Origin: a bacterium
GTDB taxonomy: Bacteria > Omnitrophota > Gorgyraeia > Gygaellales > UBA12090
DNA: 40,605 nt
Assembly: GCA_004299495.1 (NCBI GenBank)
Contig: SCPY01000069.1
Span: 1-40,605, forward strand
Direction: 5' to 3'
Below, in pieces: positions 1-30,373 of this stretch (positions are counted from its first letter, which is position 1; each line of letters starts with the position of its first letter). Under the pieces are notes generated by a model, which saw nothing but the letters and a program-made list of their open reading frames with translations, had not been told where the DNA came from and searched no databases. The translations under genes were made by a program, and so were the position numbers.

Positions 1-1
1 G

Positions 2-1096: not shown

Positions 1097-1115
1097 AAGC
1101 GGGGCGGATTAACTT

Positions 1116-5736: not shown

Positions 5737-5783
5737 TCGCGAGTGCTCCTTTTCGTTTAAACTTATAACTTATAACTTGAATT

Positions 5784-7013
5784 ATGCCTACCTATATTTA
5801 TAAGGCCGCGGACAGCGCGGGAAAACTAGTCAAAGGCGAGATAGAGGCAGGAGGCGAGATAGAAGTCACTACCCATCTGGCAAAATTAGGGTATCTGCCC
5901 ATCAGCATCAGTTTTAAGGCCGAAAAGGCCAAGCCCGCCGCCGGGACAAAGCCTCTGACAGGGCCGGGCAGGGCCCATCCTCAGTCCTTGATTATCTTCA
6001 CCCGCCAGTTTGCCACCATTATCAAGGCGGGCATTCCCATTGTGGAGGGATTAGGAGTTTTAGCCGAGCAAATAGAAGACCCTGTCCTCAAAAACGCGCT
6101 TGCGCAGATTAGCCGCGATGTGGCAGGCGGCATCAGCCTTTCTCAGGCAATGGCAAAGCACCCCCGCGCCTTTAGCGAGCTGTATGTAAACACCGTGGTG
6201 GCCGGAGAAACTGCCGGGGTCCTGGAAAGCGTGCTCTCCAAGCTTTCCTATATGCTGGAAAATGACCACGACACCCGCACCAATATTATGGCGGCGCTGC
6301 GTTATCCGATAATGGTGGTTGTCGCGATGGTAATCGCGGTTATGGTGCTCTCGGTGTTTGTAATCCCTCAATTCGCCAAGATTTACCTGGAGGCCAAGAT
6401 GAAATTGCCTTTGCCTACCCAGGCTATGATTGCCTTCAGTAATACTTTAAGATTTCGCTGGTATATCCTCCTGCCCTCCATTGCCGGCTCATTCCTGCTC
6501 TTCAAATGGTATATCAACAGGCCTAAGGGGCGATTCTGGTGGGACGGGCTGAAATTTAAAATGGTTGTGGTGGGCGAAATCTACACCAAGATTACCATGC
6601 TGCGCTTCTGCTCCATGCTTAATGTGCTTTATCAGGCCGGGCTTCCCGTGCTTAAAACCATGGATATCGTGGGCATGACCATAGGCAACGCCGTATTAAG
6701 CAAAGAGGTGGAAAAGATAAAACGAGACCTTGCCGACGGTAAGGGCATATCGGGGGCGGTACTGGCGAGTAAATTCTTTCCCCGGCTGGTGGGCTTTATG
6801 ATTTCCGTGGGAGAAAAAAGCGGCTCGCTTACCACGATGCTGGATTCCCTCTATGATTACCTGAATTTGGAAGTAAAAACCGCCGTTAAGAATCTCACCA
6901 CCTTGATTGAGCCGATTATGACCGCGGTCCTGGGACTGGTGGTAATGGGAATGTGCCTAGCCATCTTCCTGCCCCTCTGGAGCATGATTGAGGTAATGAA
7001 GGGCGGAGGATAA
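5784..7013 (+). CDS. GspF/PilC/MshG-family inner-membrane platform protein
   Basis: 409 aa. Duplicated T2SSF-type cytoplasmic domains separated by TM helices. Typical N-terminus MPTYIYKA.D..GK...GEIEA. Confidence 0.88.
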   Translation: MPTYIYKAADSAGKLVKGEIEAGGEIEVTTHLAKLGYLPISISFKAEKAKPAAGTKPLTGPGRAHPQSLIIFTRQFATIIKAGIPIVEGLGVLAEQIEDPVLKNALAQISRDVAGGISLSQAMAKHPRAFSELYVNTVVAGETAGVLESVLSKLSYMLENDHDTRTNIMAALRYPIMVVVAMVIAVMVLSVFVIPQFAKIYLEAKMKLPLPTQAMIAFSNTLRFRWYILLPSIAGSFLLFKWYINRPKGRFWWDGLKFKMVVVGEIYTKITMLRFCSMLNVLYQAGLPVLKTMDIVGMTIGNAVLSKEVEKIKRDLADGKGISGAVLASKFFPRLVGFMISVGEKSGSLTTMLDSLYDYLNLEVKTAVKNLTTLIEPIMTAVLGLVVMGMCLAIFLPLWSMIEVMKGGG

Positions 7014-7036: not shown

Positions 7037-7894
7037 ATGACGCCCTGCGCGGGATTAATCGTTGGCCTTATCGCTGTGCTTGCGGCCGGATTTTTTCTGC
7101 TCAAGAAATACTATGAAAAGAAAATCCGGGAAAAAGACAAGCTGGTAAAAGAGGTAGAAGCCCAACTGATCCAGACAGAAAAGATGGCCTCAGTGGGAAC
7201 CCTGGCCGCGGGCATTGCCCATGAGATAAACAACCCCTTAAGTTTTTTGATCAGCAACCTGGACGCCATGGCCAATTATGTGCAGTCCTTAAGCAAAGAG
7301 CCCTCGCTTGACGCGGGCCTGCGCAAAACCCTGCTGGAAGACTTCCGGCCGATGGCAACGGAATCTCTGGAAGGGGCCCTGCGCATAAAGAAAATCGTCT
7401 CGGACCTGCGCACCTTCTCCCGGCGCAGCGAAACCAAGAAGGTTTTATTGGATATCAATCAGATACTGGAATCCACACTTTCAATCGTCTGGAACGAAAT
7501 CAAATATAAGATTACCGTGGTCAAGGACTATCAGGCAAAATCCAGCATCCCGGCCGACCCTACCCAGCTATCCCAGGTGTTGTTGAATATCGTGCTTAAC
7601 GCCTCCCAGGCAATCTCCGATAAAGGCACTATCACGCTCGCCACCTCCGAAGATGAAAAAAATGTCTGTGTCAAAATCTCAGACACCGGAAGCGGCATCC
7701 CCAAGGAGGTATTGCCTAAGATATTTGACCCTTTTTTTTCCACAAAAAAAGCGGGAGCGGGGCTGGGGCTCTCTGTAAGCTATAATATCATAAAGCAGCA
7801 CGCGGGAGACCTCAAGGTGGAAAGCGCGCCCGGACGCGGCACCGTCTTTACCATCACCCTGCCTAAAAAATCCGGGGAAAACAAAACCCAATGA
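7037..7894 (+). CDS. Histidine kinase, single TM helix, no recognisable sensor domain
   Basis: H-box AHEINNPL; N-box LLNIVLNASQA; G1 DTGSGI; G2 GAGLGLS. Only about 7 residues precede the TM helix. Confidence 0.85.
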   Translation: MTPCAGLIVGLIAVLAAGFFLLKKYYEKKIREKDKLVKEVEAQLIQTEKMASVGTLAAGIAHEINNPLSFLISNLDAMANYVQSLSKEPSLDAGLRKTLLEDFRPMATESLEGALRIKKIVSDLRTFSRRSETKKVLLDINQILESTLSIVWNEIKYKITVVKDYQAKSSIPADPTQLSQVLLNIVLNASQAISDKGTITLATSEDEKNVCVKISDTGSGIPKEVLPKIFDPFFSTKKAGAGLGLSVSYNIIKQHAGDLKVESAPGRGTVFTITLPKKSGENKTQ

Positions 7895-7913
7895 TTCATA
7901 AAGGAGAACCGCT

Positions 7914-8300
7914 ATGATTAACTGGGACGAGAAGAGAAAATACAAGAGGGCATTTATTAAACTCGCGGTGGAATACCGGGGAAAAAACTTCTGGCAGATG
8001 GTAGAGGCAAATGATATCTCCGCAGGAGGGATGTTTGTGGCGACCGACAAGGTTGAGCCGGCCCAGACGAAAATAGAGGTCATCTTTGAGCTGGGAAAAG
8101 AGCCTTATAAAAAAACCATCCGCGCCGAAGGCGTGGTGGCCTGGAGCCGGGCGCAGGCCGCTAAAGACGAAAAAGGCGAAGCTGTACCCGCGGGCATGGG
8201 CATTATGTTTACCAAGACCTTTCCTTTTGTGTCAAAAGAGATCTTTGAAAACTTGTTAAAAGAGGCGGAACAGCAAAACAAACCTAAGAGCCAAGACTAA
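7914..8300 (+). CDS. Stand-alone PilZ-domain protein (c-di-GMP receptor type)
   Basis: Canonical RxxxR (RKYKR) and D/NxSxxG (NDISAGG) motifs at the normal spacing; 128 aa. Confidence 0.8.
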   Translation: MINWDEKRKYKRAFIKLAVEYRGKNFWQMVEANDISAGGMFVATDKVEPAQTKIEVIFELGKEPYKKTIRAEGVVAWSRAQAAKDEKGEAVPAGMGIMFTKTFPFVSKEIFENLLKEAEQQNKPKSQD

Positions 8301-8313
8301 GCCGGAGGGAAAG

Positions 8314-8886
8314 GTGTCCAAACATTCTATTCTGATCGTGGATGATGAGGTAAACATCCTGCACAGCTTAAGCCGTGTCTTGCGCGATGATGAGCGGGAA
8401 ATCCATACCGCATCCAGCGCGCCCGAGGCACTGGAAAAACTAAAAACCCTGCGCGCGGTTGATCTGGTTATCTCCGATAACAAGCTCCCCGACATCTCAG
8501 GCATAGATTTTTTAATTAAGGTAAAACAGCTTTATCCCGACAGCTTGCGGATATTGATTACCGGCTATCCCGACCTGGAGTCGGTCATCCGGGCGATAAA
8601 TAACGGCCAGGTATACCGCTTTATCACCAAGCCCTGGGATAACGAAGAATTTAAGCTGATCATAAATCAGGCGCTGGATTATTGCGATGTGCTAAGGGAT
8701 AACCGCGCCCTGATAAAAATTGCCAAAGAGCAGGCGGAGGCGCTTGCCGCGATGCAGAAAAAATATCCCCAGATTCCTAAGAGCGATTTTGATAAAAGCG
8801 GCATCTACATCATTGACGAGCGCAGGGTCTCGGAAACAGTCGCTGATTTCTTAAAAAAATATTATCCCAATACGCCCAAGACATAA
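8314..8886 (+). CDS. Stand-alone response-regulator receiver protein with a short C-terminal extension
   Basis: GTG start with a GGAGGGA RBS. Receiver signature residues: DDE, phospho-acceptor D in LVISD, and ITKPW. Confidence 0.8.
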   Translation: MSKHSILIVDDEVNILHSLSRVLRDDEREIHTASSAPEALEKLKTLRAVDLVISDNKLPDISGIDFLIKVKQLYPDSLRILITGYPDLESVIRAINNGQVYRFITKPWDNEEFKLIINQALDYCDVLRDNRALIKIAKEQAEALAAMQKKYPQIPKSDFDKSGIYIIDERRVSETVADFLKKYYPNTPKT

Positions 8887-8889
8887 ACA

Positions 8890-9726
8890 ATGCCAGATTT
8901 AGACGCGAAACTTGTCCAAGACGGATGGGTAAACCCGTATCAGCTAAGCCTTGCCAGGCAAGAGGCGGACAAATCAGGAAAATCCCTCTGGGCGATACTG
9001 ATAAAGTCCGGATTTATGTCTTTGGAAGACGTCACCGTATTCCTCGCCCAGGAAAGCGGGGTGGCTTATGTGGATACCGCGGATTATTCCCTTAACCCTG
9101 CCGCGGTACGCCTGCTTGATGAAGCTTTTTGCCGCCAAAATCTCGTCATCCCCTTATTTAAAATCAAGGAAACGCTGTTTATTGCCTGCGCCAACCCCCT
9201 GGATACGGAACTGATGGACGCGATAGCTAAAATGGCCGGTTGCGAGGTAACGCCCTTAATCGCCTCATCCGGATCAATTCTAAAGGCATTAAATTCTTTT
9301 TACGGGATTGAAGATAAAGTCTTTGAGTTAGACAGATTTATCACTAAGCAGGACCCGCTGGGAGGCCTTGCCTTCTGGAGGGAATCAGAACGCCTTCCGT
9401 TAAATATCCCGGTCAGCATCAAAATAGAAGACAGCAGCTTTTCCCTTCCGCATGCCGGCACCCTTGACGGCCATACCCGCGACATCTCGCGTAACGGCGC
9501 GGCAATCGGATTAGAGGTATTCATCTTCCTGCCTAAGGGAGTAAGCATTTCTCTGGAGTTCAGGCCGGATAAAAGCCTGACTGCCTCCGGAGAAGGTATT
9601 CGGGTAAAGGGAGAAACGGTATATTGCCGGATGGAAAAAGGCCAGCGCTATTTTCTGGGAGTGCGCTTCACCGACATTTCTGATGGGGCGCGCGACCGCC
9701 TTTTTGGCTTGGCAAAATCAAAATAA
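8890..9726 (+). CDS. T2SSE_N (secretion-ATPase N-terminal domain) fused to a PilZ domain, no ATPase core
   Basis: The N-terminal 140 aa parallels the N-domains of the two ATPases (NLVIPLFKIKETLFIACANPLD...ILKALNSFYG). The C-terminus carries RESER (RxxxR) and RDISRNG (DxSxxG). Confidence 0.7.
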   Translation: MPDLDAKLVQDGWVNPYQLSLARQEADKSGKSLWAILIKSGFMSLEDVTVFLAQESGVAYVDTADYSLNPAAVRLLDEAFCRQNLVIPLFKIKETLFIACANPLDTELMDAIAKMAGCEVTPLIASSGSILKALNSFYGIEDKVFELDRFITKQDPLGGLAFWRESERLPLNIPVSIKIEDSSFSLPHAGTLDGHTRDISRNGAAIGLEVFIFLPKGVSISLEFRPDKSLTASGEGIRVKGETVYCRMEKGQRYFLGVRFTDISDGARDRLFGLAKSK

Positions 9727-9958: not shown

Positions 9959-10014
9959 GTGCCCCTGTACAATTTATGAACGTGCGGTTCGCGCAATGGA
10001 TAAAGGAGAAAACG

Positions 10015-11448
10015 ATGAAAAGGCAAAATTATCTTCAAAAGAGGAGATGTCCCGTTCTTATCGCTATGTTCATGTTCTCCGCGGTTATTGCCTGTGGCGC
10101 CGAAGAATCCATCACCGTAACCACCTATTATCCCTCTCCTTATGGGGTGTATAGCGAGATGCGCCTGTATCCCAAGAATAACCCTACTGCCTGCGATAAC
10201 AACCAGAGGGGGCTGATGTATTATGACCTTGCCGATAACAGGCTTAAGGTCTGTAATGGAACGCCTCCTTATCAAGACATCGGAGGAGGCTTCTGGGCAG
10301 CCAGCCCCTCAGGCCTTAATGATATCTACTATATTAATTCCGGAAACGTCGGCATCGGGACAAATAGCCCCGGGCAAAAACTGGTAGTTCAGGCCGCGGA
10401 TGCCTCATCTTCAACAGGAACCGGCCCAACGATATATCTTCAGTCAGATGCTGCTGCGACATTGAATAGGGGCGGTTCGGTGCTTTTCGGCGATACCGGA
10501 ACAGCCAGGGCAATGATAAAAGGGGCTTACGAAGGCGCGGGGAGTTCCGGATATTTGGCTCTCTCCACCAAAACATCCGCGAATGTGATGACAGAGGCTC
10601 TTAGGATTGACAGCGGCGGCAATATCGGCATCGGGACGCCGGGCCCGACCTCAAGGCTTCATGTGAATGGTAAGTCAAGGTTTAATGATCGGGTGGGAAT
10701 ATATTTTGGCCCGGACGATATTCCACCTGGGTGGGGAGGCGGCTTGGTGACCTGGGATGTTGTGGCCAAGGCCCAAATTAGAGCTAACTCGCTCTGTTTA
10801 GGCGGAAGCGTAGGCGGAAACGATTTAGGCACCTGCCGCAACAGTTGGCCAGGAGCAGCAAATGTCCTCACAAGCACCAATGGCCAGTATGCTCTGACTA
10901 TGCAGGATGATGGTAACGTTGTTCTCTACACGCCGTGGGGAGCTCGGTTTACAACAGGTACCTATAGCGGGAAATATGGGCCCTACTATCTCATGAGCGG
11001 CAACGGCAGGTATTATTTCGTTATGCAGGATGATGCCAATCTGGTGATTTATGATAACTGGACAGGGCAGCCGATATGGGCCACGAGTTGGAGCCCTGAT
11101 GGAGACTGGAGGCCATGGTTGTCAGATGCCAGGCTAAAGAAAGATGTTGCTCTTCTGGAAGGCGCATTGGCGAAGGTGATGCGGCTACGCGGAGTTGCGT
11201 TTTCCTGGAAGGATACTACGCATGGCGAAGGCCCGCAAGTCGGGTTGATCGCGCAAGAGGTGGAAAAGATTTTTCCAGAAGCAGTAACCACCGGAGGCGA
11301 CGGCTTCAAGCGCGTAGACTATGGACGGCTCGTTTCGCCCCTCATTGAGGCGATTAAGTCGCAGCAGATTGAGATTAAAAAGCAGGGAGAATCCATTCAA
11401 CAACTGCAAGAGGAGCTTAATAAGCTAAAATCAGAAAGCAAGATTTGA
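10015..11448 (+). CDS. Secreted (possibly lipoprotein) fibre protein: tail-fibre-like repeats, bulb-type lectin domain, C-terminal S74 intramolecular chaperone
   Basis: ATG at 10015 follows an AGGAG RBS. Signal peptide has a lipobox-like VIAC. Repeats GNVGIGTNSPGQKLVV and GGNIGIGTPGPTSRLHVNG. Two QxDxNxVxY motifs (QDDGNVVLY, QDDANLVIY). The tail SDARLKKDV...GLIAQEVEKIFPEAV...VDYGRLVSPLIEAIK is typical of Peptidase_S74. Confidence 0.75.
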   Translation: MKRQNYLQKRRCPVLIAMFMFSAVIACGAEESITVTTYYPSPYGVYSEMRLYPKNNPTACDNNQRGLMYYDLADNRLKVCNGTPPYQDIGGGFWAASPSGLNDIYYINSGNVGIGTNSPGQKLVVQAADASSSTGTGPTIYLQSDAAATLNRGGSVLFGDTGTARAMIKGAYEGAGSSGYLALSTKTSANVMTEALRIDSGGNIGIGTPGPTSRLHVNGKSRFNDRVGIYFGPDDIPPGWGGGLVTWDVVAKAQIRANSLCLGGSVGGNDLGTCRNSWPGAANVLTSTNGQYALTMQDDGNVVLYTPWGARFTTGTYSGKYGPYYLMSGNGRYYFVMQDDANLVIYDNWTGQPIWATSWSPDGDWRPWLSDARLKKDVALLEGALAKVMRLRGVAFSWKDTTHGEGPQVGLIAQEVEKIFPEAVTTGGDGFKRVDYGRLVSPLIEAIKSQQIEIKKQGESIQQLQEELNKLKSESKI

Positions 11449-11466: not shown

Positions 11467-11988
11467 ATGCGCCGAGTTATCGTAGTAAGCTGGCTGGCGG
11501 TTTTTCTCTGCATATCACAATCCTATGCCCAGGAAGTCCAGAAGAGCGCGCCCCGTAATCCAGAAAAATCCCAGCAGGCTTATAAGCAGATGCAGGAGAA
11601 TTACCAGCAGGGATTCAAGCGTGTGCAGGAAGAAATGCGTAAACGCCAGGAGCAGGAGCTTGAGCAGTTAAAACAAACTAACCCGCAAGTTTACCAGGAA
11701 CGTAAGGGCGCAATTGAGCGCCAGGATAAATTCCGGACCATCCTCTCTGATTTTCAAGCGGGAAAGCTCACGGCCGAGCAGGCTGAGAGCCAGCTTTTCC
11801 CTCTTATGAAATCGGAAATGCGCTACGAATTGGAAGGCCTCAATGAGCGGATTGCCTCACTTGAGAAACAACTGGATCTTCTAAAGAAAGCTAAGCAGGA
11901 TCCCGACCTGTTCGTTCGTCACCGGGTCAGGATTATGCTGGGTAAAGAGAAAGCGGCCCCGCAACAACCACCGAATTGGGGATATTGA
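11467..11988 (+). CDS. Secreted Q/E-rich helical protein, possibly Spy/CpxP-like
   Basis: Signal peptide (LAVFLCISQSYAQE); coiled-coil-like Q/E/K-rich body; a single LTAEQ (LTXXQ) motif. The functional call is weak. Confidence 0.4.
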   Translation: MRRVIVVSWLAVFLCISQSYAQEVQKSAPRNPEKSQQAYKQMQENYQQGFKRVQEEMRKRQEQELEQLKQTNPQVYQERKGAIERQDKFRTILSDFQAGKLTAEQAESQLFPLMKSEMRYELEGLNERIASLEKQLDLLKKAKQDPDLFVRHRVRIMLGKEKAAPQQPPNWGY

Positions 11989-12195: not shown

Positions 12196-12387
12196 ATGGT
12201 GAAATACGAGTTTTTTACCGCCGTCCAGGCGGCAAAAGAATTAGGCATCTCTAAACAGACGCTCTTCCGTTACGAAAAAAAGAGGGTCTTTCCTGCCCCC
12301 AGGCGCAACCTCATTAACCGCTGGCGCCAATACAGTTATGAGGATATAAACAAATTAAAAGAGATAATGCGAGGAAGTATTGGATAA
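12196..12387 (+). CDS. Small MerR/excisionase-type helix-turn-helix DNA-binding protein
   Basis: 63 aa. AAKELGISKQTLFRYEKKRVFPAP matches the HTH_17/MerR-like pattern. Confidence 0.65.
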   Translation: MVKYEFFTAVQAAKELGISKQTLFRYEKKRVFPAPRRNLINRWRQYSYEDINKLKEIMRGSIG

Positions 12388-12814
12388 GAGATTATTGCTT
12401 ATATCTGCTTTGGTGGTATTTTTATTTGCCGGCTGCGGAAAACAAGAACCTCCGGCTCCAGTTGATGAGGCGGATACGCCGGCAGCGGAATCTAGTGCCG
12501 GGCCGGAAAAAACAACCCGGGCATTGGCAGGACAAGAAGCGGATCCTGCTTCGGATGAGCTTACGCGCAATCCCTTTTTGAGCGCTGAAGAAGAAAGCGA
12601 ATTCCGGGACGCCGGCAAGGCAATCCCCCTGGACACTCTCACTCTTTCCGCGATACTCTATTCTTCCGCGGATAAAAGTAAAGCAATCCTGCAGGGCCGG
12701 ATTTTACAGAAAGGCGACAGCATAGGAGATAAGAAAATTATTGAGATACGTCCTGAGGCGGTTATTTTAAAAGATGCCGCCACAGAATACATAATCCGGT
12801 TAAAGAGTTTATAG
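12380..12814 (+). CDS. PilP-like lipoprotein (secretin-associated)
   Basis: TTG start with a GAGGAAG RBS. Lipobox LFAGC; RNPF motif; C-terminal beta-domain pattern (LTLSAILYSS..KAILQGRILQKGDSIGDKKIIEIRPEAVIL). Confidence 0.55.
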   Translation: MDKRLLLISALVVFLFAGCGKQEPPAPVDEADTPAAESSAGPEKTTRALAGQEADPASDELTRNPFLSAEEESEFRDAGKAIPLDTLTLSAILYSSADKSKAILQGRILQKGDSIGDKKIIEIRPEAVILKDAATEYIIRLKSL

Positions 12815-12822
12815 AGATTTGG

Positions 12823-13692
12823 ATGGCGATGAGATATTTAATTTTTACGGTTGTGATGTTTTTGGCTGCGGGCAATTTTATTTTTGCTCAAGAGGAATTG
12901 CAAGATTCCACGCCGTCAACGGGCAATGTAACTGCCGCGCCGGAAAATCCGCAAGTGCCGATGCCGGACGCTACCATTGAGCCGGAACCGATGATGGAAA
13001 TAAAACAGTTGGGCGCGGATAAACCGCTTTACGCTTTTGAATTAAGAGACGTGGAAATCGGAGACCTGCTTAGGGTCCTTGCTCACGATTATAAATTAAA
13101 CCTGCTGGTGGATAAAGATGTGTCGGGAAGGATTACCGCGAGCCTGAGCGCCATTTCCCTGGAAGAGGCCTTAGAGACTATCGCGGAGTCTCAAAACTTG
13201 AGCCTCAAAAAGAAAGGAAATGTCATTCGCGTAATCCCTAACATTATCACAAAAGTTTTTAAGCTTAAGTTTGTAGAGGCAAGGGAATTGCTGGAATCAT
13301 CCTCATCTTCAGAAGACGCATCTTCGGATGCTTCTGCCGCGTCTTCGGAAAGTGCCGCGGAAACAACTACAACCTCCGCAACCGCCGAAGATGAATCGGC
13401 GTCGTCCTCCGAAGAAGATTCCGCATCCGCGCAAGAGGCGAACACCATCTATGACCTGCTCTCCGATAAAGGTAAAATCCTGCTGGGTAAGCAACCCAAT
13501 TCCCTGGTGGTGATAGATTATCCGCCATACGTGGAGAAGATAGAGGCCTACATTAAAGAAGTTGACCAAAAGATGGCAAGCAAAGTCTTTAAGCTAAAAT
13601 ACCTTAGGGCCGCGGATGTGGTTGGGCAAAGCAATGCCGCTTCCGCGACAGATGCATCGGCCGGCACCAACACCACAACTACCGGCTCATAA
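12823..13692 (+). CDS. Secreted secretin N-terminal module protein: N0/STN-like domain, one N1 domain with an acidic Ser-rich insert, and the first strand-helix of a second N1 domain
   Basis: Signal peptide. FELRDVEIGDLLRVLAHDYKLNLLVDKDVSGRITASL..ISLEEALETIAESQNLSLKKKGNVIRVIP (N0-like). KVFKLKFVEARELL...NSLVVIDYPPYVEKIEAYIKEVD (N1). Ends KVFKLKYLRAADVV plus a low-complexity tail. No secretin C-domain. Confidence 0.7.
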   Translation: MAMRYLIFTVVMFLAAGNFIFAQEELQDSTPSTGNVTAAPENPQVPMPDATIEPEPMMEIKQLGADKPLYAFELRDVEIGDLLRVLAHDYKLNLLVDKDVSGRITASLSAISLEEALETIAESQNLSLKKKGNVIRVIPNIITKVFKLKFVEARELLESSSSSEDASSDASAASSESAAETTTTSATAEDESASSSEEDSASAQEANTIYDLLSDKGKILLGKQPNSLVVIDYPPYVEKIEAYIKEVDQKMASKVFKLKYLRAADVVGQSNAASATDASAGTNTTTTGS

Positions 13693-13693
13693 T

Positions 13694-14980
13694 ATGTTGA
13701 AAAAAATAGCTATAATTTTATGTTTTATGTTCATCGCTTCCCTATCCTCCGCGCAGGAGATAAGCGATAATATCAGAAGCCTTTTGTCCAGCCAGGGAAA
13801 GGTGCTCTATGGCAATGAGCCGAATTCAATTCTGGTGATTGACTATCCGGAAAATATCCAGCGCGTGGAGGAATACTTGGATACCGTGGATATCGCGCCC
13901 CAGCAGGTGCTGATTGAAGCCAGGGTGGTAGAGGTAAAACTGCAAAAGGAGCACGCCCTGGGCGTAAACTGGAAGGCCTTCGCGGACAAGGGCTATATTC
14001 CGATGGGCAGGTTTAAGGGGGGAGCGCTTACCGCCCTGGGAAGCATGCCATCCCCTCCACAGCAAACAATCGCCTATAAGCCCACTTTTTATCCTCCGCT
14101 GCAGTCCGCGACAGGCCAGGAATCTCCCTTTACCTTTTCTATTTTTGACGACAATATCAATATCGTGGTGCAGACGCTGGCAAGCGCCCTGGATACCGAC
14201 ATTCTTTCCGCCCCGAAAGTAACCACGGTAAATAACCGGGAGGCGGAAATCAAAGTCATTCAGCGCCTTCCCTGGGCCGAGCCCACCCTAACCGAATCCA
14301 CCAGCGGCTCATCCACCGCGGTTTCTGTTACCTGGGAAATTAATTATGAAGAGGTGGGTATCAAGCTTAAGGTGACCCCTATTATCAATGATGACGGAAA
14401 AATAAGCCTCGCCCTAATGCCTGAGGTAAGCGAGAAGACCGGAGACCTCACCCTCACCGCCACCCAGAGCGGCACCAGCATTAACTATACCGTGCCCATT
14501 ATTGATACCCGAAACGCGGCCACAAAAGTGGTTATCGGAAACGGCCAGACCCTGATTATCGGAGGCCTGATTAAGGATAAGAGCGCCAAGGGCGCCTCAA
14601 AAGTCCCCCTGTTGGGGGATATCCCTCTCTTGGGTTACCTTTTTAAGAGCATCAAGGACACGCAGGATAAAACCGAATTACTCATCTTTGTTTCGCCGAA
14701 AATCATCACCCCTGACGAGCTGATTTATATGTCGCGGGAGGAAAAAAACCTGGTGGATAAGGGATACCGCAAGGAAAGGCAAAAGCGGCAAGCCGCAACC
14801 CTCAAGCAGCAGGAAACGGCAAAATCAAAGGATGACCGGCTTAACGCAAAGCTTGATACCCTGTTAGATAAACAGGAAGAATTAGCGCGGGCCAGAAAAA
14901 ACCTGGAAGAAAAAATCATTAAAGAAGAAAAAAACCTGGAGCTCCTTGAGGAAGACAAAAAAACCCCGGAGAGAAGATGA
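13694..14980 (+). CDS. Secretin (PilQ/GspD family) with its own signal peptide, a partial N1 domain, a secretin C-domain and a K/E-rich coiled-coil tail
   Basis: The ATG at 13694 gives MLKKIAIILCFMFIASLSSAQE. NSILVIDYPENIQRVEEYLDTVD; QVLIEARVVEV; LIIGGLIKD...KVPLLGDIPLLGYLFK...ELLIFVSPKII. About 90 aa of charged coiled-coil at the C-terminus. Confidence 0.85.
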   Translation: MLKKIAIILCFMFIASLSSAQEISDNIRSLLSSQGKVLYGNEPNSILVIDYPENIQRVEEYLDTVDIAPQQVLIEARVVEVKLQKEHALGVNWKAFADKGYIPMGRFKGGALTALGSMPSPPQQTIAYKPTFYPPLQSATGQESPFTFSIFDDNINIVVQTLASALDTDILSAPKVTTVNNREAEIKVIQRLPWAEPTLTESTSGSSTAVSVTWEINYEEVGIKLKVTPIINDDGKISLALMPEVSEKTGDLTLTATQSGTSINYTVPIIDTRNAATKVVIGNGQTLIIGGLIKDKSAKGASKVPLLGDIPLLGYLFKSIKDTQDKTELLIFVSPKIITPDELIYMSREEKNLVDKGYRKERQKRQAATLKQQETAKSKDDRLNAKLDTLLDKQEELARARKNLEEKIIKEEKNLELLEEDKKTPERR

Positions 14981-14997: not shown

Positions 14998-15315
14998 ATG
15001 AAAAAATGCTTACATACGCTTTTAGCTCTTGGCATCGCGGGTTTTTATTGCGCGCGGAGTTCGGGGCCGGTTTTCTGCGCGCCCGATACGGCCCGGCGCA
15101 TCCAGCAAATAGAAAAAACGATTCTCCTGGAAGGCAAGGCCCTGAAAGGGCTTCAGGGGCGCTATGAGAATATTTTAAAAAGGCAGTGGCGGCTGCGCTC
15201 TTTCCTGGAGCAAAAAAAACGCCGGGATAGAAAGCGCGTCATTGAAAGCACGCTTGCCCGGATTAAGCGCTGGGAAGCCAAAGAAAAGTCAATGCGCGAA
15301 CTTTTAGAAAAATAA
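14998..15315 (+). CDS. Small secreted basic coiled-coil protein, unknown function
   Basis: Signal-peptide-like N-terminus; R/K/E-rich helical remainder; tightly packed between the secretin and the ATPase. Confidence 0.45.
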   Translation: MKKCLHTLLALGIAGFYCARSSGPVFCAPDTARRIQQIEKTILLEGKALKGLQGRYENILKRQWRLRSFLEQKKRRDRKRVIESTLARIKRWEAKEKSMRELLEK

Positions 15316-15320
15316 AGGTA

Positions 15321-16997
15321 ATGGCGGAAATCGGTTTTAAAAAAATAGGTGAAATTCTTATAGAGCAGGGATATATCAACCAATCCCAGCTTGCGCAGGC
15401 CCTGGAAGAGCAGAAGCTCACCGGCGAAAAGATAGGTGAGGTTTTAATCAAAAAGGGCTGGTTAAGCCAGGAGGAGCTGGACTTTGCCTTAAGCTCCCAG
15501 AAGGGCATTGCCCGCTTTGACCTTTCCAATTATATTATTGAATCGGCGGTTATCAAGCTGGTGCCGGAGGAGTTCGCGCGCAAGTATATGCTTATCCCGG
15601 TATTTTTAGTGGAGAATACCCTCACGGTGGCGATGTCCGAACCCTCAAACGTCTTTATTATTGACGAGCTGCAGCGCGTCACCAAGCTTATTGTTGAGCC
15701 GGTCCTGGCAGGAGAGCTGGATATCAAAAAGGGCCTTGACCAATATTACGGGGGCTCAGGCACCCTCGCGGAAATTATTTCCGGGTTAGATAAAACCAAG
15801 CTCGCCGAAGGCGAAAAATTAGGAGAAGAGGCGCCCATCATTAAAATCGTGAATTATCTTATTCTGCAGGCGGTGCAGGTAAAGGCCTCGGATATCCACA
15901 TAGAGCCGGAGGAGAAATTTTTGAATGTCCGCTACCGCGTGGACGGGATCCTCCGCCGCCAGCCTCCCCTGCCCAGGGACCTGGCGAGCGCGATTATCTC
16001 GCGTTTTAAAATTATGTCCGGGTTAGATATCTCGGAGAAACGCGTTCCCCAGGACGGCCGCATACTGATGAAATTCGGCGCCAAGGATATTGATTTTCGC
16101 GTCTCTACCTGTCCCACCCTGCACGGGGAGAATGTGGTCTTGAGGATCCTGGACAAAGGCGGCCTGGTGCTGGGCCTTGAGACCCTGGGATTTCCTGAGC
16201 GCGAACTAAAACTGTTCCAGGAGCTGATTCGTTCACCTTACGGCATCATCCTGGTTACCGGGCCTACGGGCAGCGGAAAAACCACCACTCTTTATTCCGC
16301 CTTACAAATACTGAATAAAGAAGATGTAAACATTATGACCGTGGAAGACCCCGTGGAATATCAGTTTCCCGGCATACGCCAGGTGCATGTCAATGTGAAG
16401 GCGGGGCTTACCTTTGCCAGCGCCCTGCGTTCTTTTTTAAGGCAGGACCCGAATATCATTATGCTCGGGGAAATCCGCGACCGAGAAACCGCGGAAATTG
16501 CCGTACAGGCGGCGCTCACCGGCCATCTGGTGCTTTCCACCCTGCATACCAATGATTCGCCCTCTGCGTTTAGCCGGCTTATTGATATGGGGGTTGAGCC
16601 TTTTCTGGTTTCGTCGTCCTTACTGGGGGTGCTTGCCCAGCGATTAATCAGGAAAGTCTGCGAGAAATGTAAGGTGTCGTTTAGCCCTACGGAAGAATCC
16701 TTAAGAAATCTCGGCCTGGAAGACAAAATAGGCAAAGATATCAAATTTGCCAGGGGAGGCGGCTGTAAATTGTGCAACTCAAGCGGATATAAGGGGCGCC
16801 TGGGAATTTATGAGCTCCTTAAGGTTACCCCGGCCATCCAGGAAGTAGTCTTAAAGAGGTCTTCGGCGGATGACATCCGGGCCCTGGCGATAAAAGAAGG
16901 GCTGGCGCCCTTAAGGCAGGGCGCCCTGGAAAAACTTATGTTAGGGCTGACCACCCCTGAGGAGGTGATGCGCGTTACCTTGGAATCCGGCCAGTAA
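15321..16997 (+). CDS. pilB: PilB/GspE-family assembly ATPase with tandem MshEN-type motifs
   Basis: Walker A GPTGSGKTTT; MLGEIRDRETA; TGHLVLSTLHTNDS; tetracysteine CEKCK...CKLCNSSGY. N-terminus has KIGEILIEQGYINQSQLAQALEEQ and KIGEVLIKKGWLSQEELDFALSSQ. Confidence 0.9.
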   Translation: MAEIGFKKIGEILIEQGYINQSQLAQALEEQKLTGEKIGEVLIKKGWLSQEELDFALSSQKGIARFDLSNYIIESAVIKLVPEEFARKYMLIPVFLVENTLTVAMSEPSNVFIIDELQRVTKLIVEPVLAGELDIKKGLDQYYGGSGTLAEIISGLDKTKLAEGEKLGEEAPIIKIVNYLILQAVQVKASDIHIEPEEKFLNVRYRVDGILRRQPPLPRDLASAIISRFKIMSGLDISEKRVPQDGRILMKFGAKDIDFRVSTCPTLHGENVVLRILDKGGLVLGLETLGFPERELKLFQELIRSPYGIILVTGPTGSGKTTTLYSALQILNKEDVNIMTVEDPVEYQFPGIRQVHVNVKAGLTFASALRSFLRQDPNIIMLGEIRDRETAEIAVQAALTGHLVLSTLHTNDSPSAFSRLIDMGVEPFLVSSSLLGVLAQRLIRKVCEKCKVSFSPTEESLRNLGLEDKIGKDIKFARGGGCKLCNSSGYKGRLGIYELLKVTPAIQEVVLKRSSADDIRALAIKEGLAPLRQGALEKLMLGLTTPEEVMRVTLESGQ

Positions 16998-17066: not shown

Positions 17067-17624
17067 ATGGGCAAGAAAAAAGGTTTTACCTTAATTGAAT
17101 TGATGGTGGTTATTGCCATCATCGCGGTGTTGGCCGCGGTGGTTGCTCCACAGGTTTTCAGGCAGGTGGCTAAAGGAAGGGCGGCTTCCGTAGAATCATT
17201 TTATAATTCGGTGAAAACCGCCGCAACCGGTTATTTCTCTGATACAAGCGTGTGGCCGGTAAGCTGTACCCAGATTACCTGTAATACTAATGCTGGTGTA
17301 AATGGCGGCTTTGTGCAACCCGCAACCGGAAACCCTAATTGGGATGGACCGTATATTGACAGGTGGCCAGGCGCGAACGCAAATCCTTTTGCGGGTAACT
17401 ATCAATGGACCAACGCCGCCGCCGGAGCGTGTTTTGGCGCCGCCGCCGGAGAAAGGTTTATTACCATAACTAACGTCGCACAGCTTGCGGACCGACAAAG
17501 AATTGACATAGCCATAGACGGAGGAACTACCAGCGGAACCGCCGGTAAGGTGCGCTATGGCAGCGGCTGCTTTGGAGGCGCCAACGTAGGAATTGTCGTT
17601 TCCCGCGATGGAGCTATAAACTAA
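17067..17624 (+). CDS. Major type IV pilin / pseudopilin (prepilin N-terminal cleavage-methylation domain)
   Basis: MGKKKG|FTLIELMVVIAIIAVLAAV. Own promoter and terminator. Several Cys pairs in the C-terminal half. Confidence 0.88.
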   Translation: MGKKKGFTLIELMVVIAIIAVLAAVVAPQVFRQVAKGRAASVESFYNSVKTAATGYFSDTSVWPVSCTQITCNTNAGVNGGFVQPATGNPNWDGPYIDRWPGANANPFAGNYQWTNAAAGACFGAAAGERFITITNVAQLADRQRIDIAIDGGTTSGTAGKVRYGSGCFGGANVGIVVSRDGAIN

Positions 17625-17662
17625 AAAGTCGCGGTTATAGTCTTTAAAATCGCGTTTATAAT

Positions 17663-17710
17663 GAAACCCCTCTTTTCACTTAACGATAATATGAAAAGAG
17701 GGGTTTTCTT
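17663..17710 (+). terminator. Intrinsic terminator after the major pilin gene
   Basis: 16-bp stem GAAACCCCTCTTTTCA / TGAAAAGAGGGGTTTC, followed by a short T-containing tail (TTCTT). Confidence 0.8.
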
Positions 17711-17724
17711 ATGCTGGGACGTTA

Positions 17725-17753
17725 TTGTAAATGGCCGCGGGTTATGCTATACT
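17725..17753 (+). promoter_or_regulatory. Candidate promoter for the minor-pilin operon
   Basis: TTGTAA (17725-17730), 17-nt spacer, TATACT (17748-17753), only 7 nt before the ATG at 17761. Confidence 0.35.
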
Positions 17754-17760
17754 AAATTTT

Positions 17761-18228
17761 ATGCCGCATCATCCAGTTTCTCGCGCGAAAGGTTTTACCC
17801 TCATTGAACTTATCGCGGTTATCGCCATTGTTGCTGTGGTATCCGGTATGTCCCTGGCGTCTTTCTCAACTTTAACCGGAGACCGGCTTACCGCTAATGC
17901 CCGAAAAATCGTCAGCGATCTCTGCTGGGCGAGGCAATTAGCCGCCGCCAAACACAGAAATCATATCGTGGTTTTTGATACCGCCGCGGAAAGCTATGTT
18001 ATCTACGATGATCTTGACGCGGACGCCTCTGCCGACCCGAGTGAAGAAATTAAGGAACAAATCTTAACTACAGGCATTGACCTGGTTTCAGTAACTCCTC
18101 CTACGGCCCAGCTTACCTTTGGCTTTCCTCTGGGCACAACCCAAACCAAAACCATCACCTTAAGTTCTCAAGGAAAAATAAGGGCCGTGGTAACTTTTGC
18201 TAACACAGGATATGTGCGGATACAGTAA
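17761..18228 (+). CDS. Minor pilin, GspH/FimT-like
   Basis: Leader MPHHPVSRAKG|FTLIELIAVIAIVAVV. The start at 17761 is preferred over 17731, which lies inside the candidate promoter. Confidence 0.7.
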   Translation: MPHHPVSRAKGFTLIELIAVIAIVAVVSGMSLASFSTLTGDRLTANARKIVSDLCWARQLAAAKHRNHIVVFDTAAESYVIYDDLDADASADPSEEIKEQILTTGIDLVSVTPPTAQLTFGFPLGTTQTKTITLSSQGKIRAVVTFANTGYVRIQ

Positions 18229-18646
18229 ATTCGCTGCGCACAACAAAAAAAGCTTTAGCCTCATTGAGGTCGCGGTGGCAATCGCGCTTTTGGCCCTGGT
18301 TTTCGGCGGGGCACTCGCGGTCTTTAGCCAGGGGGCCGTTGCTTCCAGAAAAACCCAGCAGCAGGCTGTGGCATATAGCTTGGCCCGGGCTTTTTTAGAG
18401 CAGCATTCCGACTGGAATAGCTTAGATATTCTCGATGGCAGCTTAGATGGCGCGGTAACAAATAGTACTTATGCAAATCCGCCCGCGCCGGCTGCTATTA
18501 ATAATATACTATACACGCCTTCGCTTGCGGTGTCGGACGGCCCGATTAACCCAACACAGCTTAAGCGCCTCGATATAACCATATCCTGGATGGATGGCGC
18601 TATTGCCAGAAACATCACCATTGCCACACTAAAGGCAAATTATTAA
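18212..18646 (+). CDS. Minor pilin, PilV/GspI-like, atypical Ser at position -1
   Basis: HNKKS|FSLIEVAVAIALLALVFGG. Start is ambiguous (18197 or 18212). Overlaps the previous gene. Confidence 0.6.
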   Translation: MCGYSKFAAHNKKSFSLIEVAVAIALLALVFGGALAVFSQGAVASRKTQQQAVAYSLARAFLEQHSDWNSLDILDGSLDGAVTNSTYANPPAPAAINNILYTPSLAVSDGPINPTQLKRLDITISWMDGAIARNITIATLKANY

Positions 18647-18704
18647 TCTATGAAAGCTTGCCGATATAGCGATACCCCGATAGAGACTGCAGGGCACCTC
18701 TAAT

Positions 18705-19388
18705 ATGAAAAATAATCTTACAGCGTATAGTAAAAGCAAAAATTTTTTTTACTCTTTCCTATCCGCTATCCGCTATCCGCTATCCGCTAAAGATGGGTTT
18801 ACTTTGCTTGAAGTAATAGTAGCCATTGCCGTCTTTGCCTTAATCGTAGCCGCGGCCGCGGGAACCTTTGCCACAATCCAAGCGGCCTGGCGAAAACAGA
18901 GAAACACCATAGACCTGGCGCAAAACGCGCGCTGGGCAATGGAGCGCCTGGCAAATGAAATAAGACACACTACTGCCGGCGGAGGTTGGGGCGATATCAC
19001 AATTCTGGCGGGAGGCAGAGGGGTGCGACTTGGAATAGATGCCGATGGCGATAGCGTTGTAGACACGCGCGTGGTGTTCTGGCGCGGAAATACCGCCTCT
19101 GACACAACAGGCCAGGGGCACCAGAATTATCTTTATAGGGGCATTGGGAATAATATTGCTCCGGCCTATCCTACACGCCAGCAATTAGCCAATTTTATTG
19201 TGAACAATCCTGATTTAGTAAATAATGCAACCGGCCTGCCTCCATCCGACGGCGCGATTGACCCGGTTTTTATTCTTAATGGCGGCTTGCTCAATATAGA
19301 GTTAACCGTCAGGCCAAGGCCGACTGCGGCTGTAGGCAGGGAAAACCGCGACTATACCTTAATGACGCGAGTAAGGGTGAGGAATTAA
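18705..19388 (+). CDS. Minor pilin, PilW/GspJ-like, with a long 30-aa leader
   Basis: AKDG|FTLLEVIVAIAVFALIVAAAAG; 227 aa. The leader coding region contains a T8 run and a 7-nt tandem repeat. Confidence 0.65.
   Translation: MKNNLTAYSKSKNFFYSFLSAIRYPLSAKDGFTLLEVIVAIAVFALIVAAAAGTFATIQAAWRKQRNTIDLAQNARWAMERLANEIRHTTAGGGWGDITILAGGRGVRLGIDADGDSVVDTRVVFWRGNTASDTTGQGHQNYLYRGIGNNIAPAYPTRQQLANFIVNNPDLVNNATGLPPSDGAIDPVFILNGGLLNIELTVRPRPTAAVGRENRDYTLMTRVRVRN
18759..18789 (+). repeat. Heptanucleotide tandem repeat (CTATCCG x4.4) inside the minor pilin leader coding region
   Basis: Units at 18759-65, 18766-72, 18773-79 and 18780-86, plus a partial unit. Preceded by a T8 run at 18743-18750. Confidence 0.9.
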
Positions 19389-19390
19389 TC

Positions 19391-19888
19391 GTGCGATTGC
19401 GCGCTAAAAAATCTCAGGCCCGCCTGGCTTCAGTCGGGCAGGCAATGCTTTTCGCCCTCTTTATTTTAGCGGTCTTTGGTGCGCTCTCCGCGGGCTTGGC
19501 GGCAATGTGGGAGTCCGAGATGCGCACCCGCGCCTCGGACCGGGACAGCTTAATCGCCTTGTATCTAACACAGGCTGGGATTGAGCGGGCAAAGATGCTG
19601 GTTCTTAGCGGTTACTGGGCTCCGGGAACCTATACTATCGCAAGCCAGAACGGCCTGGATGTTGCCGGCGATAATTATCAATTCCTCTACGACATAGGCA
19701 TAACCAACAGCGGCGGAACAGCCAGAACGCTCATAGGCACCGGCAGGGTTCTGGATTTATCCGGCAACGAGCTTGCGCGCAGGGAAATTCAAATAACTGT
19801 AAATGGAATATCTGACATCCTTCCTCTTGACGGATTGGATGATAATATGTCCGGCTCACCTCAAGCCTGGAGCTGGCGCGAAATATAA
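19391..19888 (+). CDS. PilX/GspK-like minor pilus component
   Basis: GTG start with a GAGGAA RBS. Hydrophobic N-terminal helix without a G|F cleavage motif. Position after the PilW-like gene. Confidence 0.5.
   Translation: MRLRAKKSQARLASVGQAMLFALFILAVFGALSAGLAAMWESEMRTRASDRDSLIALYLTQAGIERAKMLVLSGYWAPGTYTIASQNGLDVAGDNYQFLYDIGITNSGGTARTLIGTGRVLDLSGNELARREIQITVNGISDILPLDGLDDNMSGSPQAWSWREI
19415..19443. repeat. 29-bp hairpin-forming repeat, copy 1, in-frame in the pilX-like gene
   Basis: CAGGCCCGCCTGGCTTCAGTCGGGCAGGC, identical to 30014-30042; translated [10 protein letters not shown]. Confidence 0.9.
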
Positions 19889-19890
19889 CT

Positions 19891-21105
19891 ATGCAAAACT
19901 TTCTCTATAAAGCCCGGGATAATTTCGGCAAGGAGGTCCGCGGCACCATGATGGCGGACGGCGAAGCGGAGCTGGCGAATAAAATCTCTAATCTGGGTTA
20001 TTATCTTGTCCGCTATAAGGAAATAAGCGAAGCGCAGCAGCTTAAGGGCAGTAAAAAAGTTGCCCGGCTAAAAACCCCGGACCTGCTTAATTTTACAATA
20101 CACCTGGCTACGCTTATTGACTCCGGAGTCCCCTTGGCCGCGGCCTTACGCGAGTTGGCACAGGATGAAACCAAGGAAAATCTGCAGAAAATTATCGACG
20201 ATGTGCGCTATCGCGTGGAGGCCGGCTCTTCCTTAAAAGAGGCCCTTGCCTCGTCCCCGCGTTCTTTTCCTAAGCTATACACCGCGATAGTGGGCGCGGG
20301 AGAATCCACCGGCAAGCTTCCCGTCTGCCTGAATGAATTAGCCAGGCTTATTGACTGGCAATTAGAGTTGGGGGCAAAGGTAAGGGAGGCCGCTACTTAT
20401 CCGGTAATCCTTTTCTGCGTGATGCTGGGAGTAGTAACGCTTTTGATGGTAAAGATGATCCCCACCTTTAAGCCGATATTCAAAGAAATGAACATCCAGC
20501 TTCCCGGGCCCACCCAGTTTGTATTGAATGTGAGCGATTTTGTGCTCAACTGGTGGTGGATGATATTGGGGGCCGCGGTTTTATTGGTTGCCGGATATAT
20601 CGCCTATAACGCCACAGCCGGAGGCAGATACAGAATAGATAGCGTAAAGCTGCGCCTGCCCGTCCTGGGGGGCCTGCTGCGCAAAATTGCCCTCTCCAGG
20701 TTTTGCCACACCTTTGCCCTGGGGTTAAAATCCGGAGTCAATATTCTAACGGCTTTGGATTTGGCCAGCGAAGTGGTGGACAATGTCCGCATCAGGCGCT
20801 CTGTGGTAAAAGCCAGGGATTCCGTGAATGTGGGAGAAAAACTCGGCACGGCTTTTCAGGTGTCGGGCGAGTTTCCTCCGCTGGTAGTGCGCATGATTAC
20901 CGTGGGCGAGCAGTCCGGCTCGCTTCCCCAGACCCTGGATAAAGTCACCATTTTCTACGACCGGGAGGTCCCCTCTGCCATCAGGAAAATGTTTTCCCTT
21001 TTTGAGCCGGTGACAATCGTGTTCATGGCGGCGGTCGTAGGAGGAATTGCCGTGGCAATTTTCCTGCCCATGTTCAAAATAGCCGACGTTATCGGCGGAG
21101 GATAA
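19891..21105 (+). CDS. pilC: PilC/GspF-family platform protein
   Basis: 404 aa. N-terminus MQNFLYKARDNFGKEVRGTMMA; duplicated T2SSF domains; three TM segments. Confidence 0.88.
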   Translation: MQNFLYKARDNFGKEVRGTMMADGEAELANKISNLGYYLVRYKEISEAQQLKGSKKVARLKTPDLLNFTIHLATLIDSGVPLAAALRELAQDETKENLQKIIDDVRYRVEAGSSLKEALASSPRSFPKLYTAIVGAGESTGKLPVCLNELARLIDWQLELGAKVREAATYPVILFCVMLGVVTLLMVKMIPTFKPIFKEMNIQLPGPTQFVLNVSDFVLNWWWMILGAAVLLVAGYIAYNATAGGRYRIDSVKLRLPVLGGLLRKIALSRFCHTFALGLKSGVNILTALDLASEVVDNVRIRRSVVKARDSVNVGEKLGTAFQVSGEFPPLVVRMITVGEQSGSLPQTLDKVTIFYDREVPSAIRKMFSLFEPVTIVFMAAVVGGIAVAIFLPMFKIADVIGGG

Positions 21106-22986: not shown

Positions 22987-23564
22987 AAATAGAAATCAAC
23001 AATAACCCGTTTTTCGCGAAAAACGCGATAGCGTTTTCTGTTATCGCTTTACTTTTCGCCTGCTTCTTGTGGCAGATAAGGGCAAATATCTCGCTGAAGC
23101 AGGAGCTCAATACAAAAAAGGATGAATTTAAAGAAGCCAAATCCGCGAGCAGACGCTTAAAAAAACTGCAGCAACAGATTCAAGGGCTGGAAGGGCGGGA
23201 GAAAACCGTAAACAGCATGGTCCCCCGCAACGAACAGCAGCCCCTGGGCCTGGTAAGAACGCTTAGCGGCCTTGCCGCGGACACCGGGCTTAAAAACGCG
23301 GCTTTTACGATAAAAGAGGGTAAGGCCGCCCCCTCTGGCGCGCAGGCAATGGAGACTCCCCTTCCCGCGGGGATAGGCTCCCTGCGCGTTGAAATGAGCT
23401 TTGAGTCCGCGCTGTCGCAGGCGCTTGATTTTTTGAAAAGGGCAGCCAGCATTGAGCGCGTAGTGGCGGTAGAAAAGGTCAAGATCGAGCGCAAAAAAGA
23501 AATCTTACCCCACCAAAAGGTAACGCTTGAGCTAGTTGCTTACACGTTCTCCGGTGAGAACTAA
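22983..23564 (+). CDS. PilO-like bitopic protein
   Basis: TM helix, then coiled-coil (KDEFKEAKSASRRLKKLQQQIQGLE), then a C-terminal alpha/beta domain. Start overlaps the PilMN stop (ATGA). Confidence 0.5.
   Translation: MKIEINNNPFFAKNAIAFSVIALLFACFLWQIRANISLKQELNTKKDEFKEAKSASRRLKKLQQQIQGLEGREKTVNSMVPRNEQQPLGLVRTLSGLAADTGLKNAAFTIKEGKAAPSGAQAMETPLPAGIGSLRVEMSFESALSQALDFLKRAASIERVVAVEKVKIERKKEILPHQKVTLELVAYTFSGEN

Positions 23565-26330: not shown

Positions 26331-30373
<4,043 letters not shown>

Follow-up and report, generated by a model that had tools for sequence, protein, structure and literature searches.

Type II and type III secretion systems, type IV pili and filamentous phage all use secretins as their gates in the outer membrane, and in the well-studied systems one chain supplies the pore as well as the periplasmic rings in contact with the inner-membrane platform. 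Members of the superfamily carry a Sec signal peptide and assemble into multimers of 12-15 subunits. Here we analyze a secretin of an uncultured groundwater bacterium that is divided between two adjacent open reading frames, ORF1 and ORF2, with the gene boundary falling inside one of its periplasmic domains. It lies on contig SCPY01000069.1 (40,605 nucleotides (nt), referred to as the window; all coordinates are those of the whole window), whose closest relatives are labelled Candidatus Omnitrophota. The best overall explanation, and one we consider likely, is that the pair forms a two-polypeptide secretin of a type IV filament machine resembling a type II secretion system (T2SS) or a type IV pilus (T4P), in which the divided domain is rebuilt in trans.

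An earlier reading of the DNA letters alone (the original prediction) had assigned to ORF1 an N0 domain, a complete N1 domain (N1a), part of a second N1 domain (N1b) and a low-complexity tail, and to ORF2 the remainder of N1b and the pore; coordinates and Pfam matches agree with this layout (Table 1). The STN match in ORF1 (27.4 bits) is slightly below the cutoff of 28.4, and its N0 resembles that of PilQ in PDB entries 3jc8, 4av2 and 4ar0. ORF2 carries the secretin superfamily pore domain (PF00263, aa 165-338, E=3.2e-47), and its PDB matches include GspD/XcpQ (5wln, 1.6e-33) and PilQ (6w6m, 1.6e-32). The break lies inside N1, as had been claimed: the Secretin_N match in ORF2 (aa 19-71) covers profile positions 10-69 only, so that the first strand is missing, while positions 1-9 are present at the end of ORF1. 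N0, N1a and strand β1 of N1b are therefore on a different polypeptide from the pore. Direct reading likewise bore out the paralogy of the two N1 remainders (19 of 37 residues identical) and the tail of ORF1, which consists of 21 S/T/A/N residues after KVFKLKYLRAADVVG. A mechanically called ORF at 13616-14980 is ORF2 read from an earlier upstream ATG, nothing more.

Because the ORFs are in different frames and one base apart, they could stem from one secretin gene that has become a pseudogene by frameshift or was misread in sequencing or assembly. At the contig level, an independent Logan contig, assembled from a groundwater metagenome at k-mer depth 22, agrees with every base of 13300-13950, junction included, and contigs of related strains from three other runs (90-95% identity) span the junction with substitutions only and zero indels. 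A scan of GTDB with one representative genome for each species yielded 43 loci with both halves, of which 40 are split into two adjacent same-strand ORFs with varied junctions and three are fused (L024, L029 and L037). Both halves are strongly conserved, and the ORF2 signal peptide is kept: among the 112 ORF2 homologues with a full N-terminus, 110 have a hydrophobic core, 109 have K/R ahead of it and 111 have a small-x-small site, typically xYA↓QE. The pseudogene or error explanation is thus effectively refuted, in line with the original prediction, which had called a simple frameshift pseudogene unlikely and had also credited ORF2 with a signal peptide of its own. From the putative cleavage site to an invariant LLSSxGKVLYG motif there is a median of 9 residues in the ORF2 homologues, and cleavage in ORF2 itself would fall about 3-4 residues ahead of helix α1''. 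We also considered the ORF2 N-terminus as a lipoprotein signal and rejected this on direct reading, as no lipobox-like pattern precedes Cys10 and the Cys is not conserved. The AQE site shared by ORF1 and ORF2 proved uninformative as a sign of common signal-peptide origin, because an unrelated secreted protein of the window (11467-11988) also has YAQE.

The division extends across the lineage. A database search returned more than 180 stand-alone ORF1-type proteins of 245-357 aa, with identities reaching down to about 40-50%, and the best 120 ORF2-type matches are mostly 385-446 aa long, with identities down to about 52%. Named matches are nearly all from Candidatus Omnitrophota metagenome-assembled genomes (MAGs), with ORF1 and ORF2 under consecutive NCBI locus tags. 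With E<=1e-30 and clustering at 50% identity, an exhaustive, profile-free search for ORF1-type proteins gave 82 clusters, of which only 4 are not short; its weaker matches are ordinary long secretins. ORF1-type proteins end in [RK]VFKLKY[LI]xAxD[VI]VG plus a variable tail, and the signal-peptide-bearing ORF2-type proteins begin with xSxNIxxLLSSxGKVLYG; the window matches both motifs. On the strength of this sequence comparison, the split is real and ancient. Its conservation throughout the lineage also suggests that the halves probably join after export.

A further possibility is that recoding, by programmed frameshifting or by read-through of the stop codon, joins the two ORFs into one full-length secretin. 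The adjacency of the ORFs would suit such recoding, as would those loci in which a lone stop separates the reading frames (for example L013 and L017). The junction could be parsed in 36 split loci, in 13 of which the ORF2 start lies in the ORF1 frame; the other two frames occur in 16 and 7 loci. ORF1 ends in TAA in 21 of these loci, in TAG in 8 and in TGA in 7, and the gap between its stop and the start of ORF2 lies between -29 and +69 nt (35 split loci, leaving aside the mis-parsed L015). Frame, gap length and stop codon thus differ from species to species, no slippery site is conserved, and Shine-Dalgarno-like GGAGG motifs precede many ORF2 starts. Moreover, in a read-through product a hydrophobic signal peptide would lie buried within a periplasmic domain. 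The variety of stops, gaps and frames points to two independently translated genes and excludes a conserved frameshift or read-through signal, and we regard recoding as very improbable. Translational coupling across the junction in the window is likely, and the two genes are probably co-transcribed. One 182-nt wastewater RNA-seq contig is identical to 13137-13317, inside ORF1; this is a weak hint of transcription in which DNA carry-over is possible, and too little to speak to co-transcription.

The piece of N1b left on ORF1 is the best conserved part of that protein. In an alignment of 120 ORF1 homologues, β1-α1' (aa 254-268) has a mean top-residue frequency of 0.82 and an entropy of 0.78 bits, compared with 0.76 and 1.05 bits for N0 and with 0.30 and 2.78 bits for the tail that follows, which in relatives is 9-55 aa long and S/T-rich or acidic. 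So strong a conservation argues that β1-α1' is not a vestigial fragment and, as read from the alignment, purifying selection acts on it. The tail appears to be a remnant of the intradomain linker of N1b. A point that the original prediction had missed is that the low-complexity insert in N1a corresponds in position to the break between the genes in N1b; this insert is hypervariable among the homologues (entropy 2.44, occupancy 0.63). Since N1a bears a 47-aa insert at the equivalent site, the break in N1b falls in an insertion-tolerant loop.

Natural fusions show the two pieces in one chain. In the fused orthologues with two N1 domains (P0225, P0227 and P0238, 689-700 aa, plus L024 and L037) the order is signal peptide, N0, N1a with insert, N1b and pore, and EVFRLKYLSAAEIVG-[S/T-rich linker]-SKVLELLSPEGKVLFGQEPNS forms one continuous N1b. 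All three fused loci have a PilP-like gene upstream, and L024 and L037 also have a GspE gene downstream. Forms with a single N1 domain occur both fused (L029, P0183, P0216 and P0222) and split (L016 and L040). The first gene of the L016 pair encodes 181 aa, comprising a signal peptide, N0, β1 and an acidic tail, and a single base separates it from the pore gene. In a neighbour-joining tree of the pore core with 60 bootstraps, the family was monophyletic in 60/60 replicates and L024 was nested within the split clade in 60/60, whereas only 2/60 placed a fused taxon in the basal lineage. By parsimony, the family probably goes back to a single fission at its base, with a few later re-fusions; an in-frame deletion that takes out the stop codon together with the signal peptide would suffice for each of these. 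Among the loci from other phyla, L064, L067 and L074 (Auribacterota; MAG labelled Actinomycetota) carry tandem pairs of full-length secretin genes (665-802 aa per protein), which are duplications and not splits.

We then asked AlphaFold2 for the structure of a composite domain of 103 residues, in which ORF1 aa 245-289 was joined directly to ORF2 aa 21-78, using a 98-sequence family alignment. The model has the order β1-α1'-[disordered]-α1''-β2-β3-α2, with a predicted local distance difference test score (pLDDT) of 92-95 in the structured parts, and the break lies in the disordered loop (Table 1). Its best Foldseek matches in the PDB are the N1 domains of HofQ, PilQ, XcpQ, EscC and GspD, with KH domains next, and it superposes on XcpQ N1 with a root-mean-square deviation of 2.0 Å over 89 columns. 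According to this model, the two fragments together encode a complete N1. A full-length linked AlphaFold2 model gave a pLDDT of 83-95 for the ORF2-derived N1b remainder and the pore, a helix for the C-terminal tail of ORF2, and poor scores for the ORF1 part throughout.

Taken together, we propose the following arrangement. Similar amounts of ORF1 and ORF2 would be made because their genes are adjacent or overlapping, and Sec would export the two proteins separately, each with a cleavable signal peptide of its own. The multimeric pore in the outer membrane would consist of ORF2, with its mature N-terminus exposing an N1b that lacks the first strand (three quarters of the domain). ORF1 would be a periplasmic module of N0 and N1a whose C-terminal β1-α1' inserts into this remainder, rebuilding one KH-like N1b by β-strand complementation, so that the docked protein would tether N1a and N0 to the pore non-covalently. 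N0 would in turn bind the HR-domain lipoprotein encoded upstream, and hence the inner-membrane platform, by analogy with PilQ-PilP and GspD-GspC/GspB. The variable ORF1 tail and the ORF2 N-terminus would be the two ends of the former intradomain loop. We judge complementation of N1b by β1 of ORF1 to be probable. That the fold is reconstituted in trans had been put forward in the original prediction, and it gains indirect support from the conservation of β1-α1', the fused orthologues in the same operon context and the composite N1 model.

Several points weigh against this arrangement. Physical docking of the two chains is something we infer, as are separate export, stoichiometry and binding of N0 to the lipoprotein. 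The composite attests to fold compatibility and not to binding in trans, because its pieces were covalently linked and its alignment consisted mostly of intact N1a. In the full-length linked model β1 was undocked and formed a low-confidence helix, although with only 4 sequences aligned over the ORF1 part this model is uninformative on β1 docking. In addition, both signal peptides were judged by sequence heuristics only, read support came from assembled contigs rather than raw reads, and the neighbour-joining tree is rough.

Within the same machine, β1-α1' might have a different binding partner, for example the HR-domain lipoprotein, the ring of a neighbouring protomer or peptidoglycan-associated factors, with the truncated N1 of ORF2 folding or oligomerizing alone. 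The confident prediction of the N1b remainder without a docked β1 (pLDDT 83-94 in the full-length linked model) would fit this, and the miT2SS of some protists likewise has free half N-domains whose pairing is unproven (PMC8134430). However, it is exactly these two pieces that the fused orthologues join into one Secretin_N, the profile positions absent from ORF2 are those found at the end of ORF1, and the composite is predicted to fold as a canonical N1. We consider binding to another partner unlikely.

A secretin of the same split design occurs in a second lineage. In the Nitrospirota MAG JAADIA010000035.1 (1724-5651; L068), where a pilin gene lies downstream, the N-terminal protein of a PilQ-like secretin has 579 aa with AMIN, TPR and N0 domains and ends in ...PVTKAYKLKYGIRTIRQVAPTLLGKQQEVN; four bases on there follow, in tandem, two secretins (352 and 372 aa), each with a signal peptide, whose Secretin_N matches start at profile positions 13 and 8. 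The same ending was present in all four full-length relatives of the 579-aa protein that were read, and a search for related loci with an L068 pore protein found only itself. The L068 pore proteins are about 28% identical to ORF2, as distant from it as unsplit secretins are, and the shared breakpoint must therefore be either very old or recurrent.

The L068 arrangement, one AMIN-N0-β1 protein followed by two β1-less pore paralogues, is the sole hint for the original prediction's further idea that the N0 module is exchangeable, that is, an adaptor for alternative pores, or one of several alternative ORF1s, which would allow regulated coupling and uncoupling of pore and platform. The window and 40 related loci each have a single ORF1 with a single ORF2 closely next to it or overlapping it. 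The second secretin of the window has an intact N1 and would need no donor strand, and functional re-fusions suggest that permanent attachment is tolerated. We found no direct support for exchange, which seems improbable; the tight adjacency and likely coupling argue for a fixed 1:1 partner.

Table 1 Features of the split secretin locus and its surroundings. Positions are window coordinates unless given as amino acids (aa) of a protein or as residues of the composite model; +, forward strand; ↓, putative cleavage site.
Feature	Position	Strand	Remarks
MerR-type helix-turn-helix protein, 63 aa	12196-12387	+	operon head; gene overlaps start of lipoprotein gene
HR-like-domain lipoprotein (lipobox LFAG↓C)	12380..12814	+	T2SSB 6e-5, CdsD_C 2.6e-5, both below curated cutoffs (Pfam)
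ORF1	12823-13692	+	289 aa; TAA stop at 13690-13692
Signal peptide of ORF1	aa 1-22	+	K/R, hydrophobic core, IFA↓QE site; heuristic reading
Disordered stretch of ORF1	aa 23-66	+	
N0/STN of ORF1	about aa 67-140	+	Pfam STN aa 92-139
N1a, complete (Secretin_N)	ORF1 aa 143-250	+	Pfam profile positions 1-66 of 69
S/T/E/A low-complexity insert in helix α1 of N1a	13294..13434	+	aa 158-204, 47 aa
β1-α1' of N1b (KVFKLKYLRAADVVG)	13582..13626	+	ORF1 aa 254-268; proposed complementing strand
Disordered C-terminal tail of ORF1	13627..13689	+	aa 269-289; 21 S/T/A/N residues; hypervariable
Junction TAA-T-ATG	13690..13696	+	single base T13693 between ORF1 stop and ORF2 start
ORF2	13694-14980	+	428 aa; ATG at 13694; +1 frame relative to ORF1
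Putative signal peptide of ORF2 (MLKKIAIILCFMFIASLSSA↓QE)	13694..13753	+	K/R, hydrophobic core, SSA↓QE site
N1b remainder α1''-β2-β3-α2	13754..13891	+	ORF2 aa 21-66; pLDDT 83-95 in both AlphaFold2 models
Secretin pore region	13892..14725	+	Pfam Secretin aa 165-338 plus preceding linker and strands
K/E-rich helical C-terminal tail of ORF2	14726..14980	+	aa 345-428, 84 aa; in the place of the S-domain
Small protein, 105 aa, hydrophobic N-terminus	14998..15315	+	no Pfam match; in 3/42 related loci
GspE/PilB ATPase	15321-16997	+	Pfam
Five pilin-like genes, one GspH-like	17067-19888	+	Pfam
GspF/PilC	19891-21105	+	Pfam
PilM-like, 623 aa	21115-22986	+	Pfam
PilO-like	22983-23564	+	Pfam
dnaA	23747		downstream of type IV filament genes
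dnaN	25236		downstream of type IV filament genes
gyrB	26624-30373	+	downstream of type IV filament genes
gyrA	30386		downstream of type IV filament genes
Composite β1	residues 8-13		strand, pLDDT about 92
Composite α1'	residues 19-23		
Composite disordered loop (holds break)	residues 26-42		pLDDT below 50
Composite α1''	residues 43-55		
Composite β2	residues 61-64		pLDDT 93-95
Composite β3	residues 70-75		pLDDT 93-95
Composite α2	residues 77-90		pLDDT 93-95

A homologue of the lipoprotein gene lies directly upstream of the secretin in 36 of 42 related loci, fused loci included. In PilP, GspC and GspB it is the HR domain that binds N0 of the secretin, as described for OutB (PMC9239104), and by analogy the lipoprotein is likely a candidate partner of N0 of the PilP/GspB/GspC-HR type. 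PilQ is accompanied by a PilM/N/O/P alignment complex and by the ATPases PilB and PilT. The window contains PilM-like and PilO-like proteins, a PilP-like lipoprotein (weak match) and one PilB/GspE ATPase; PilT was not found in it. At the other end of the pair, the ORF2-type proteins of one subclade (L031, L032, L033 and L062) reach 700-790 aa through a large additional C-terminal region.

Further features of the window lie outside this operon. The 3' part of a second secretin (1-1096, +) runs off the left end of the window, and since its N1 is continuous (TKLFRLNNASALTLKESLSRVLGPDGSIEADARSNSLVVTD...) it serves as an unsplit control from the same genome. It is followed, up to 7013, by a coiled-coil protein, a TPR protein, an MshE-type ATPase, an AAA_22 protein (MshM/ExeA-like) and GspF, and the block as a whole (1-7013) looks like an MSHA-like pilus system. 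Next, at 7037-9726 (+), come a histidine kinase, a PilZ protein, a response regulator and an MshEN plus PilZ protein that lacks the ATPase domain, a set that suggests cyclic di-GMP control of the pilus systems. Between both pilus systems, a 490-aa protein (9976-11448, +) has a hydrophobic N-terminus, a C-terminal Peptidase_S74 domain (1.2e-17) and two motifs, QDDGNVVLY and QDDANLVIY, which we take to recall bulb-type lectins (no such Pfam match was reported). Peptidase_S74 is an intramolecular-chaperone domain found in phage tail spikes and endosialidases. The gyrB gene encodes 1249 aa and includes an intein (Intein_splicing match at aa 444-868) between the GyrB and Toprim domains, and because dnaA, dnaN and gyrA flank it we place the window at a replication-origin region.

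The arrangement offers a chain cut within one domain and kept under selection lineage-wide, with naturally re-fused controls available. It could be used to study how N-domain rings assemble, whether pore insertion can be separated from platform docking, and how an intradomain gene fission with gain of a second signal peptide becomes fixed. Current annotation calls ORF1-type proteins 'hypothetical', 'FecR domain-containing' or 'secretin and TonB N-terminus domain protein'. With such labels on these proteins, and with ORF2-type proteins resembling truncated secretins, automated system finders may misjudge such machines.

In its order of signal peptide, N0/STN, N1-type domains and pore, the pair resembles PilQ, GspD/XcpQ/PulD and HofQ. 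Unlike in these single-chain secretins, the chain appears from its genes to be cut inside N1 and divided between two separately exported proteins, and helix α1 of the N1 domains has long disordered inserts. PilQ has one or more N-terminal AMIN domains, and the Nitrospirota analogue has AMIN too, whereas Pfam found none in ORF1 or ORF2. GspD has the series N0-N1-N2-N3 and an S-domain with a pilotin, and its partner GspC has HR and PDZ domains, whereas here there are only two N1-type domains and the HR-like partner is a lipoprotein; Pfam detected no S-domain, pilotin or PDZ domain. The gene content is T2SS-like, E-G-H-(I,J,K-like)-F-L/M-like. Sequence comparison with solved structures favours neither T2SS nor T4P, ORF2 having near-equal scores to GspD and PilQ and N0 being closest to PilQ.

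A literature search found no report of a divided secretin from Omnitrophota or from a bacterial type IV filament system, a weak negative given that subscription journals were mostly uncovered, and a broad survey of the evolution of type IV filament systems mentions gene fission only for TadB/TadC (PMC6668835). Divided secretins have been described elsewhere. Rhizobial type III secretion systems (T3SS) encode the secretin in separate, dispersed RhcC1 (NolW) and RhcC2 genes, the significance of the split being unknown (PMC3574062, PMC3973906). The present pair likewise comprises an N-terminal and a C-terminal secretin gene kept across a lineage. The Rhc genes belong to a T3SS and are dispersed or separated and differently regulated, whereas ORF1 and ORF2 stand in a type IV filament context and are adjacent and probably coupled. 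The mitochondrial type II secretion system (miT2SS) of some protists has GspD plus GspDN1-3, of which GspDN3 and GspDN2 are the N-terminal and C-terminal halves of Secretin_N (PMC8134430). The two cases share half N-domains on separate chains, and only this half-domain principle is common to them. The miT2SS is eukaryotic and nuclear-encoded, without N0 or GspC, and its genes are highly divergent and dispersed; the system described here, in contrast, is a bacterial operon next to dnaA/dnaN/gyrB that keeps N0, has its C-terminal half-domain fused to the pore, bears signal peptides for Sec on both halves (by heuristic reading) and has natural re-fused orthologues.

More generally, it is possible, and we suggest this only tentatively, that an N1 domain can be stably split at an insertion-tolerant loop and re-formed by strand complementation, that the resulting non-covalent link between pore and platform may be ordered, regulated or shared, and that this loop is a recurrent site of fission in Omnitrophota, Nitrospirota and GspDN2/3. 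Completion of an incomplete β-fold by a foreign strand has counterparts in the donor-strand complementation of chaperone-usher systems and in complementation of the split green fluorescent protein type. The likeness is one of analogy only, as the chaperone-usher domains are Ig-like whereas the fold here would be the KH-like N1, probably divided through fission of the gene within one domain.

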